Source: an uncultured archaeon (GTDB taxonomy: Archaea > Asgardarchaeota > Hermodarchaeia > Hermodarchaeales > Hermodarchaeaceae). From it: a DNA stretch of 64,000 nt. Of this stretch, positions 8,745 through 31,045 are shown piece after piece. Location of the stretch: the NCBI GenBank assembly GCA_964347045.1, contig CAYFXC010000001.1:32001-96000 (forward strand). Direction: 5' to 3'. Under the pieces are notes generated by a model. That model saw nothing but the letters and a program-made list of their open reading frames with translations. It was not told where the DNA came from and searched no databases. The position numbers were made by a program, and so were the translations under genes. How positions within the stretch are numbered: the first letter of the stretch is position 1; each line of letters opens with the position of its first letter.

Positions 8745-9584
8745 ATGCACTTGGAATTAATACAAAATGAACCTGCCCTCCTTCTTCGTGAGGGATCACG
8801 ACGTGTTTTAGTTGTAGGGGATTTACATATAGGTTACGAACGAATCCTTTTCAAACAGGATTATTATTCAACCAATCTTACTATTCGGATTATCACGGAG
8901 TTTGAAAAACTCGTTGAGAAGTTAGAACCCACTGAAATCATCATCTTGGGTGATTTGAAACACTCTATCCAAGATTTTTCTAAGCCGGAGTTCCATCAAA
9001 TTGCACAACTATTACAACACTTACAGCAACGTGCAAAGGTCACCATTATCCCAGGAAACCATGATGCAGATTTGGAATTAGTTACACCTGACGACACAAA
9101 AATCAGTTCATCAGCAGGTCTTCGCCTTCAGTTCAAATCAAAACAGATATATCTTCTACACGGGCACGCCCACCCATCCTCTGATATTCTCTCTTGTGAC
9201 AGCATGATTATGGGTCACATTCATCCAACCATCTCTATCTCAAAATTTAAACAAAAATCATCTCTACATCGAGTCTGGGTAAAGACAAAGTGGAGGTCTA
9301 CAATTGGCGAGACTACGAAGAGATGGTCAGGTGAAGGACAATTCCAAAACGAAAAAGAAGTGATTCAGAGACTTCTTAATATGAGAATTCTAATTATTCC
9401 AGCGTACCTTAGCTTACTCCGAGGACATGTTCTTAATATTGATTCGTCGAATACTCATCTAGGAACTCCATTATTTCGCCATCTCTCACTAGATGATGCC
9501 GAAATTATAATGCTTGATCACACGCCTTTAGGAACACTTGAAAAATTAAAGGAAAAAAGACACCCCGATAAAGAAACATTTTAA
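8745..9584 (+). CDS. Metallophosphoesterase (Lhr-associated type)
   Basis: GDLHIG, GDLKH, GNHD, HGH and GHIHP motifs. Confidence 0.88.
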   Translation: MHLELIQNEPALLLREGSRRVLVVGDLHIGYERILFKQDYYSTNLTIRIITEFEKLVEKLEPTEIIILGDLKHSIQDFSKPEFHQIAQLLQHLQQRAKVTIIPGNHDADLELVTPDDTKISSSAGLRLQFKSKQIYLLHGHAHPSSDILSCDSMIMGHIHPTISISKFKQKSSLHRVWVKTKWRSTIGETTKRWSGEGQFQNEKEVIQRLLNMRILIIPAYLSLLRGHVLNIDSSNTHLGTPLFRHLSLDDAEIIMLDHTPLGTLEKLKEKRHPDKETF

Positions 9585-9612
9585 GAGCCTATTTACTGTA
9601 TCCTGCACCGTT

Positions 9613-9812
9613 GGGTCGATGGTCTAGATTCTCAGGAAACTAGCTTTCCTGGTCTAGTTTGGTATTGGACAAAGGATAAGTTCCTTCGAACCACCAAAGA
9701 TTCGCGGTTCGGGACCATGCGAACTATAAGTCTCATGGCGGGAATCCGTGAGATCCGGGGTTCAAAACCAGCCTGTATACGCCGGTTGGGGAAACTCCCC
9801 GTCGGCCCACCA
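9613..9812 (+). tRNA. tRNA-Pro(CGG) with four introns (9630-9659, 9666-9698, 9714-9744, 9767-9795)
   Basis: Removing the four BHB/BHL introns gives a 77-nt cloverleaf: GGGTCGA TG GTCT AGATTGGTA TGAT T CGCGG TTCGGGT CCGTG AGATC CGGGG TTCAAAT CCCCG TCGGCCC A CCA. Confidence 0.88.
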
Positions 9813-9910
9813 TTCACTTCCTAATAATTCTTAATGTGGAAAATTCGTCAGTTACCGTAATTTTAGTAAAATTGCGTAAAGCACTTAAAGTATAGTGAGT
9901 TGCCAGTAGT

Positions 9911-10648
9911 ATGCCAGTGGCGGCGCAAGTTAGACAACGTCTTGCTCGACGCATAGCAGGGGAAATCTCATTATCTGAGATCCCCGGTCGTATCATGCGC
10001 AAATGGCGCGAGATGTTTCACATTTCTCAAATCCAATTAGCAGAGGCTTTGAGAGTATCACCTTCTGTAATCAGTGATTATGAAAGTGGACGCCGTCAAT
10101 CGCCTGGCACAAAAACCATCAAACGTTTTGTTGAAACCATAATTACACTAGACGAACAAAATGGCGGCCAGGTGGTAAATGCTTTCCAACGCATGATGGG
10201 TGTAGAGATACCATCCAGTATAATTCTAGATATCAGCGAATTTAGTCATGGGGTTACTATCAAAGAAATCATTGAAAGCTTACGAGCACAAATTATCGTA
10301 GGCGAGGAACTCCTCGATCGCGAGGTTTTAGGGTATCTTATCGTAGATATCTCAGAAGCGTTAGATATTCTATCTAGTACCGGTTTTCTTAAACTATTTG
10401 AAGCAACTGAAGACCGCGTTCTAATTTTAGTTAATGTATCAACGGGACGATCACCACTTGTAGCCATGAAAGGTGAAATTAAACCAAGTCTTTTTGTACT
10501 ACATGGAGTAGAACAAATCGATTATCTTGCAATTGAACTTGCCAAACGAGAACAAGTGCCACTAGCAGTCTCCCGAATCGAATCAGTTGCGGGAATGTTG
10601 CGACGCTTACAAACTCTTCGCAAAAACTCCATCAATGAAAAACAATGA
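9911..10648 (+). CDS. XRE-family HTH transcriptional regulator (COG1709-like, DRTGG-like C-terminus)
   Basis: IAGEI...KWRE...SVISDYESGRR and STGRSP motifs. Confidence 0.85.
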   Translation: MPVAAQVRQRLARRIAGEISLSEIPGRIMRKWREMFHISQIQLAEALRVSPSVISDYESGRRQSPGTKTIKRFVETIITLDEQNGGQVVNAFQRMMGVEIPSSIILDISEFSHGVTIKEIIESLRAQIIVGEELLDREVLGYLIVDISEALDILSSTGFLKLFEATEDRVLILVNVSTGRSPLVAMKGEIKPSLFVLHGVEQIDYLAIELAKREQVPLAVSRIESVAGMLRRLQTLRKNSINEKQ

Positions 10649-30948: not shown

Positions 30949-31045
30949 GCGGAGTTGGCGGAGCGGTAACGCGCTGGACTCGAGATGAACCGGGTCATCC
31001 AGTGACCTTTTGGTCGCAAGGGTTCAAATCCCTTACTCCGCGCCA
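30949..31045 (+). tRNA. tRNA-Ser(CGA) with a 12-nt canonical 37/38 intron (30985-30996)
   Basis: Long variable arm, G73, BHB CTCG/CGGG, encoded CCA. Confidence 0.92.

Follow-up and report, generated by a model that had tools for sequence, protein, structure and literature searches.

Analysis of a 64,000-nt stretch of Asgard DNA (referred to below as the window) led to a tRNA-Pro(CGG) gene located on the forward strand at 9613-9812, which carries four inserts. The data presented here make it very probable that this is a functional, single-copy gene whose four inserts are BHB introns removed by EndA and RtcB. The gene is 200 nt long and consists of five exons of 17, 6, 15, 22 and 17 nt, all in the same orientation. 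Exon 1 (9613-9629) provides the 5' strand of the acceptor, U8 and G9, the 5' strand of the D stem and the D-loop bases A14 to U17, and it is followed by the 30-nt intron 1 (I1, 9630-9659, gene coordinates 18-47), which is established at position 17/17a of the D-loop. Exon 2 (9660-9665) is a 6-nt micro-exon, UGGUAU, corresponding to U17a, G18, G19, U20, A21 and U22. The 33-nt intron 2 (I2, 9666-9698, gene coordinates 54-86) then interrupts the D stem at position 22/23. Exon 3 (9699-9713) contains the 3' strand of the D stem (G23-U25), U26, the 5' strand of the anticodon stem and the loop bases U32, U33, C34, G35, G36 and G37, and the 31-nt intron 3 (I3, 9714-9744, gene coordinates 102-132) occupies the canonical position 37/38. 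Exon 4 (9745-9766) comprises U38, the 3' strand of the anticodon stem, the variable loop, the 5' strand of the T stem and the T-loop bases U54 to A59, and it is separated by the 29-nt intron 4 (I4, 9767-9795, gene coordinates 155-183, T-loop position 59/60) from exon 5 (9796-9812), which bears U60, the 3' strands of the T stem and the acceptor, the discriminator A73 and a genomically encoded CCA.

Splicing in silico at the boundaries first proposed by a sequence-only reading of the window yields, as that reading had stated, a canonical 77-nt cloverleaf, which ARAGORN calls as tRNA-Pro(cgg) once I1 to I4 are excised. The acceptor stem is perfect, as the gene starts with GGGTCGA and ends with TCGGCCC-A-CCA, including the encoded CCA. 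All the features of a tRNA-Pro(CGG) are present, namely CGG in a 7-nt loop, U33, G37, the G1-C72 pair and the discriminator A73. The D stem of the spliced product harbors a U13.U22 mismatch, and the same D arm (GUCUAG..GGUAUGAU), mismatch included, was found in the intron-less tRNA-Pro(UGG) gene of the same genome, located on contig C1 at 236282-236358. The T loop and the acceptor ends are also common to the two proline tRNAs.

A DNA search of 40 related genomes recovered the gene from each of the 14 remaining genus members and from each of the four members of the sister genus. Concerning synteny, the neighbours of the gene in the window are a metallophosphoesterase gene (8745-9584) and an HTH_3 regulator gene (9911-10648), with the gene of the A-type ATPase subunit F next after the latter. 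In both genera the HTH gene comes downstream of the tRNA gene, and throughout the genus the metallophosphoesterase gene is found upstream of it. The number of introns at this locus varies. Twelve genomes of the genus (that of the window and 11 more) bear all four introns, while three (G001, G008 and G012) bear I2, I3 and I4 without I1. In the sister genus, G017 and G018 have only I3, G015 has only I1 and G016 has no intron at all. The loci of this ortholog series are L019 874-950 (-), L018 1358-1463 (+), L016 1478-1584 (+) and L012 1494-1663 (+). Specifically, G016 encodes an uninterrupted 77-nt tRNA-Pro(CGG), close to the predicted mature tRNA, which is found by ARAGORN and scores 55.9 bits with the Rfam tRNA model RF00005, while the G017 gene, interrupted by I3, scores 42.3 bits with the same model. 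The contiguous exons of G015 and G017 match the predicted mature tRNA letter for letter. G015 and G016, both devoid of I3, read UUCGGGUCCGUG at the anticodon loop; I4 is missing from all four genomes of the sister genus, which read UUCAAAUCCCCG at that place, and I2 is likewise missing from all four. Because the exons are contiguous in the orthologs that lack the inserts, all eight boundaries are fixed without any assumption about splice motifs.

Additionally, in an alignment of the 18 sequences the switch from invariant to variable columns falls exactly at the predicted boundaries, and the edge bases of the introns vary (the last two of I1, for instance, are UU, UA, CC or CA). Exon 1 is near-invariant among the 18 aligned orthologs and is the same as the contiguous sequence of the G015 and G017 genes; exon 2 shows zero variation (18/18); exon 3, with the anticodon CGG, is unchanged in all orthologs; and exon 4 presents a single change, in G012, being otherwise invariant. 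Among 185,579 species genomes (one per prokaryote species), exact matches to exon 4 were restricted to 17 MAG records of Hermodarchaeota type, labelled as Hermodarchaeota, Hermodarchaeum or, with the generic Asgard name, Promethearchaeota, two of them carrying other Asgard names, and these labels place the host among the Hermodarchaeota. The identity of the gene, its four introns and all eight boundaries, as given in the sequence-only reading, are therefore backed by the intron-less and intron-poor orthologs and, as described below, by covariation.

The splice motifs follow one layout at all four junctions. The four exon bases before the 5' cut pair with the four intron bases before the 3' cut, each strand of this central helix is followed by a 3-nt bulge, and the predicted cut lies after the second bulge base. 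The same BHB geometry occurs at the same offsets in all orthologs. For I1, the central helix is CUAG/CUAG with four of four pairs and the bulges are AU^U and UU^U; in the genus, its interior forms an 8-bp hairpin with one mismatched pair between hairpin and bulge, and the outer helix is a single G.U, while in G015 the inner helix is contiguous with the bulge. I2 has the central helix UGGU/ACCA (4/4), the bulges AU^U and AA^G, and an interior made of a 2-bp inner helix and a separate 5-bp hairpin, and it belongs to the HBh' class. I3 is a strict hBHBh' motif, with the central helix UUCG/CGGG (4/4 when U-G wobbles are counted), the bulges GG^A and AA^U, the anticodon stem outside and a 5-bp helix (CCAUG/CAUGG) inside. 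Finally, I4 presents a relaxed BHB with the central helix UUCA/GGAA, where three of four positions pair and the fourth is an A.G mismatch kept in 14 of the 15 genomes of the genus; its bulges are AA^A and AC^U, and it is flanked by the T stem outside and a 6-bp helix inside. Thus, the helices and 3-nt bulges claimed for the four introns exist at every junction, full four-base pairing being confined to I1-I3, and two of them, those of I1 and I4, fall short of the strict BHB form.

The chance occurrence of such motifs was estimated by shuffling each intron interior 20,000 times with the boundaries held fixed and scoring the central and inner helices. The fraction of shuffles with a motif as good as the observed one was 0.0005 for I1, 0.039 for I2, 0.00055 for I3 and 0.0003 for I4. 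Nearest-neighbour folding gives no preference to the motifs, as forcing each of them costs 3.4-6.5 kcal/mol and the minimum free energy fold of the precursor arranges the I1 region otherwise. An unfavourable folding energy is usual for 3-nt bulges recognised by protein, and bulges bound by a protein are poorly described by nearest-neighbour energies.

Covariation was scored on the 18-sequence alignment for 59 proposed pairs, covering the acceptor, anticodon and T stems, the four central helices and the helices internal to the introns. Standard pairs fill 94.7% of the cells, versus 38-51% when the partners are slid by 1-3 columns. Changes on both sides were detected in 17 pairs, and for four of the five measures the values observed were reached in none of 500 shuffles. 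These double-sided changes are located in the intron-internal helices, where they affect six of eight pairs in I1, two of two in I2, three of five in I3 and four of six in I4. Within the central helices no changes occur on the exon strand, and those on the intron strand nearly always bring in another base that pairs, the exceptions being occasional mismatches in I3 and the A.G of I4; for I2, the changes of the intron strand are limited to G-C/G-U and U-A/U-G. As read from the alignment, this pattern of pairing in the introns is characteristic of RNA structures on which selection acts.

Concerning routine annotation, ARAGORN and RF00005 both reported other tRNAs in the window and missed the gene at 9613-9812, which was also missed by ARAGORN in intron mode over the whole genome and by a permissive Rfam scan of the locus. 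The expectation that standard tools would miss the gene was therefore borne out for ARAGORN and the Rfam tRNA model, which are the tools that were run. ARAGORN in intron mode made 34 tRNA calls genome-wide, 17 of them intron-less, and since there are only 34 calls, about 12 expected tRNAs are undetected in this genome. Within the window, the tRNA at 30949-31045 (+) was reported as 'tRNA-???' by ARAGORN without intron mode (RF00005 53.2 bits) and as a tRNA-Ser(cga) with a 12-nt intron at position 37 in intron mode. Four further intron-mode calls are implausible (C1 c116118-116240, C7 c29722-29845, C33 9065-9173 and C1 173080-173225), as they have the anticodon at position 67-80 or specify Asp with the anticodon atc. 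These calls on C1, C7 and C33 have the appearance of additional tRNA genes with several introns that ARAGORN miscalled.

Neither ARAGORN nor RF00005 nor a scan for hairpins with a CGG anticodon turned up another tRNA-Pro(CGG) gene in the assembly, which is 88.9% complete. The latter scan, covering contiguous CGG anticodon stem-loops genome-wide, returned 44 hairpins, none of them in a tRNA context. A 'tRNA-Pro(cgg)' called by ARAGORN at C59 23-1552 was rejected as a false positive, since its acceptor stem is mismatched and its supposed 1444-nt 'intron' is packed with coding sequence. The T arm of this call is taken from a genuine class II tRNA gene located near C59 1440-1552, and the 5' portion of that gene itself seems to be interrupted. 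A second 'tRNA-Pro(tgg)' called by ARAGORN on C16 is not a proline tRNA either, given its long variable arm and different acceptor stem. A second, compact tRNA-Pro(CGG) could lie on DNA missing from the assembly, given its completeness of about 89%. CCG might also be read through wobble by the tRNA-Pro(UGG), in which case the gene would not have to be essential.

A rival reading takes the locus for a tRNA pseudogene in decay, which has gathered insertions and has ceased to give a working tRNA, with CCG codons being read by the tRNA-Pro(UGG) or by an undetected gene. Apart from the incompleteness of the assembly, it could draw on the blindness of the standard detectors to this gene and on the two relaxed motifs, I1 and I4. 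We nevertheless consider it very improbable. The exons stay invariant in 15 species, between which the flanking proteins show up to about 45% difference, and the diverged inserts keep their pairing through compensatory changes, with the splice-motif geometry preserved in four places. A pseudogene would lose this geometry, and the covariation argues against one as well. The upstream promoter motif is conserved as well, and the roughly 89% of the genome that is assembled yielded no other tRNA-Pro(CGG).

The promoter in question is a putative archaeal one at 9570-9585 (+), composed of a purine-rich, BRE-like stretch and a TATA-like box (AAAGAAACATTTTAAG for the whole), and it is located 28-43 nt upstream of the mature 5' end. 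Its core, AAGAAACATTTTA, is near-invariant at the same distance in most orthologs of the genus, with variants in three of them. The sequence AAGAAACATTTTAAG or a close variant lies upstream of the gene across the genus, at 28-42 nt from the mature 5' end, and a related GGAAAGAyTTA occurs in the sister genus. At this distance AAGAAACATTTTAAG would be well placed for a BRE/TATA promoter of archaeal type that leaves a short leader, a putative function that we deduce from position and conservation.

The genome also encodes the machinery that such a precursor would need. Two genes of the EndA family (PF01974/PF02778) were identified. The product of the first, located at C7:6076-6636, is a 186-aa protein that aligns end to end with the catalytic subunit of the enzyme of Aeropyrum pernix (3P1Z_B, E-value = 6e-45). 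The catalytic Tyr, His and Lys and the recognition Arg and Trp have been defined for the A. pernix EndA (Hirata et al., 2011, PMC3241643), and the 186-aa protein keeps them as Y124, H132 and K163 and as R156 and W183, respectively. Its Crenarchaea-specific loop aligns ungapped, and K41 aligns with Lys44 of the specificity loop, a residue that A. pernix EndA needs for cutting non-canonical introns (Hirata et al., 2011, PMC3241643). The second gene encodes a 199-aa paralog that is missing the catalytic His and matches structural subunits, being closer to the EndA of M. jannaschii and M. kandleri than to the A. pernix beta subunit. Judged from these alignments, the two paralogs fit an (alpha-beta)2 EndA. 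The likeness of the host enzyme to the (alpha-beta)2 EndA of A. pernix (Hirata et al., 2011, PMC3241643; PDB 3P1Z, 3AJV) was assessed from sequence similarity. Additionally, the gene of the RtcB ligase is intact (570.9 bits). The His-less paralog is located at C1 239537-239797 (-), within a cluster of tRNA genes at C1 236-241 kb that contains Pro-UGG, Thr-UGU, Thr-GGU, Tyr and Asp as well as two weak RF00005 matches.

Taken together with the gene, these components suggest a pathway in which the conserved BRE/TATA promoter would give rise to a precursor of about 200 nt with four protein-spliced introns. Each intron and its adjoining exon bases would form a 4-bp helix between two 3-nt bulges, the (alpha-beta)2 EndA with its two subunits would cut after the second bulge base on both sides, and RtcB would join the exons to a 74-nt tRNA followed by the encoded CCA. 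A search of sequencing runs for this DNA listed a DNA metagenome, perhaps the source of the assembly, and two further runs of that study, and no RNA run.

One may suppose instead that the inserts are removed by means other than EndA and RtcB, or that some of them are retained as expansion segments. The departure of I1 and I4 from the strict BHB form leaves some room for this, as does the fact that Asgard EndA has no biochemistry behind it, which is also said in a recent preprint (bioRxiv 10.64898/2026.10.13.758758). Both versions have very little probability in our view. The BHB layout with symmetric cut sites in the bulges is found at all four junctions, inserts of 29-33 nt are far below the size of self-splicing introns, and the host EndA possesses the loop and the lysine that the A. 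pernix enzyme uses on non-canonical introns; retained inserts would disrupt the D stem and the contacts of G18/G19 with the T-loop. Fewer introns or other boundaries (I1, exon 2 and I2 as one D-arm insert, or I1 in the register UAGA/UCUA, which gives an 11-nt D-loop) are still harder to credit, even though in the window sequence the alternative pairing of T13-A16 with T41-A44 for I1 is perfect and adjoins the inner hairpin and a second ACCA (gene positions 78-81) could pair with UGGU: in orthologs lacking I1 or I2 the D-loop is 9 nt long and contains exactly UGGUA, the UAGA/UCUA register meets an A.A mismatch in G015, the upstream ACCA is not conserved while positions 81-84 always pair, and the sequences turn from invariant to variable precisely at the boundaries of the sequence-only reading. 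A split or permuted tRNA gene was rejected, as the five exons are colinear inside 200 nt.

With four EndA-spliced BHB introns as the preferred explanation, the proximity of I1 and I2 bears on the order of their removal. It was confirmed that nucleotide 9660 (T48 of the gene) is at once the third base of the I1 3' bulge and the first base of the I2 central helix. Because both canonical motifs need T48, they are mutually exclusive, and since they cannot coexist the two introns are probably removed one after the other. Were both cut before either ligation took place, nothing but pairs to an excised intron would keep the 6-nt exon 2 in place. Stepwise removal of I1 and I2 is thus likely, as deduced from the gene sequence. 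Concerning the direction of these steps, all 15 splicing intermediates were folded and the cost of forcing each remaining BHB was computed, which stayed between 3.4 and 6.5 kcal/mol in all of them. Forcing the I2 motif costs 4.7 kcal/mol with or without I1, and the cost of forcing the I1 motif drops from 5.9 to 3.6 kcal/mol once I2 is removed. The ordered splicing put forward earlier therefore has the shared nucleotide 9660 as its one source, and the folded intermediates establish no order and lend no support to I1 going first. Either intron also occurs without the other, I1 without I2 in G015 and I2 without I1 in G001, G008 and G012.

The orthologs also give some insight into the gain and loss of the introns. 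I1 of G015 and I3 of G017 and G018 are like their counterparts of the genus in both position and sequence. I1 and I3 were therefore probably present in the ancestor of the family, with I2 and I4 having been added in the genus. A tree of two flanking proteins places the I1-less G012 as the first branch of the genus, while the I1-less G001 and G008 are nested among four-intron species with strong support, and this combination implies at least two changes in the state of I1. All three I1-less alleles of the genus, located at L009 1501-1670 (-), L012 1494-1663 (+) and L015 1494-1663 (+), read AGCUUGG with C16, and the I1-bearing genes as well as G015, G017 and G018 read AGAU|UGG. Parallel loss, deletion between the CTAG repeats or transfer of the allele are possibilities for the C16 of the I1-less alleles. 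As for the second of these, the palindromic central helix creates two CTAG direct repeats, and a deletion between them could remove I1. A blastn-short search of the genome, with every intron plus its junctions as query, returned only chance-level matches for copies elsewhere (best E-value = 0.25). A joint proposal, that the 6-nt exon 2 and the overlap of the I1 and I2 motifs at T48 form a safety device and that the locus with its zero, one, three or four introns is a record of intron loss, is offered as a tentative one that we would not expect to hold in full. In such a device, one intron would be cut and its exons ligated before the motif of the other could form, so that the free hexamer would not be lost.

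Regarding comparable systems, the maximum described for Thermoproteales is three introns per tRNA gene, and these archaea belong to another phylum, whereas the host here is an Asgard archaeon and the gene has four introns. The likeness to their multi-intron tRNA genes (Sugahara et al., 2008, as cited in PMC11291895) consists of BHB introns at many positions, including the D arm and the T loop, several introns per gene and a broad-specificity (alpha-beta)2 EndA, in the present case a predicted one. Transposition of introns has been proposed for Thermoproteales, while no intron copies common to several tRNA genes were found here. The highly disrupted nuclear tRNA genes of the red alga Cyanidioschyzon merolae can hold as many as three BHB-type introns in a single gene, distributed over the D arm, position 37/38 and the T loop, and their processing order has been shown by RT-PCR of the intermediates (Soma et al., 2013, PMC3728597). 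C. merolae is thus a precedent for ordered splicing, although it concerns a eukaryotic nucleus, no more than three introns and evidence from RNA, whereas the present case is built on the gene sequence.

Closer relatives are found among the Asgard archaea themselves. The sequence-only reading had considered four introns exceptional, a view that is outdated, given that four- and five-intron Asgard tRNA genes have already been reported (PMC11291895; bioRxiv 10.64898/2026.10.13.758758). Four-intron tRNAs were tabulated in Freyarchaeia and Atabeyarchaeia (Valentin-Alvarado et al., 2024, Supplementary Data 4, PMC11291895), with Arg-TCT and Ile2-CAT of Freyarchaeia listed at 4/4, and Leu-GAG together with Trp-CCA of Atabeyarchaeia-2 raised to four by curation (PMC11291895). 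A census of 90 genomes reports up to five intervening sequences per Asgard tRNA gene (Goswami et al., bioRxiv 10.64898/2026.10.13.758758). According to the same preprint, the D-arm introns are those that annotators miss, most Asgard genomes have two EndA paralogs, and the (alpha-beta)2 arrangement applies to most of them (bioRxiv 10.64898/2026.10.13.758758). Since four-intron Asgard genes are already listed, the four introns described here do not constitute a record.

The gene of the window resembles those of Freyarchaeia and Atabeyarchaeia in that they come from the same phylum, have multiple short BHB-type introns per gene, many of them non-canonical, and contain D-arm introns that are missed. 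It differs in several respects. The host belongs to another class, Hermodarchaeota; tRNA-Pro(CGG) has one intron in the published complete Asgard genomes (n = 3), compared with four here (PMC11291895); and the genome looks less saturated with introns, 17 of the 34 ARAGORN calls being intron-less, whereas 92-95% of the tRNA genes are interrupted in Atabeyarchaeia and Freyarchaeia (Valentin-Alvarado et al., 2024, PMC11291895). Hermodarchaeota are not mentioned in the main text of the preprint (bioRxiv 10.64898/2026.10.13.758758), and our literature search found no paper on tRNA introns of Hermodarchaeota. The tRNA-Pro(CGG) gene of Hermodarchaeota is thus a new example of the strongly interrupted tRNA genes known in Asgard archaea, which it extends to this class, and it involves no new mechanism. 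As routine annotation misses Asgard tRNA genes, the tRNA complements of MAGs and their completeness estimates come out too low. Apart from this, a single syntenic gene with no intron, one intron (of two different kinds), three or four introns offers a compact test case for the turnover of BHB introns, and the locus can also be useful for studying the substrate range of Asgard EndA.

Finally, the surroundings of the gene contain further elements. About 130 nt upstream of the tRNA-Pro gene of G017, in the sister genus, a weak match to a C/D-box sRNA was observed at L016 1296-1347 (-), scoring 24.3 bits with the Rfam family sR2, which is below the gathering score. On the other side of the gene, the motif TTCGTCAGTTACCGTAAT is located in the window at 9844-9861 (+), 32 nt past the tRNA and roughly 50 nt ahead of the HTH_3 gene. 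It is kept in both genera, with TCGTCAGTTAACGTAGTT as the form of the sister genus, and it may be an operator or promoter element of the HTH_3 gene.
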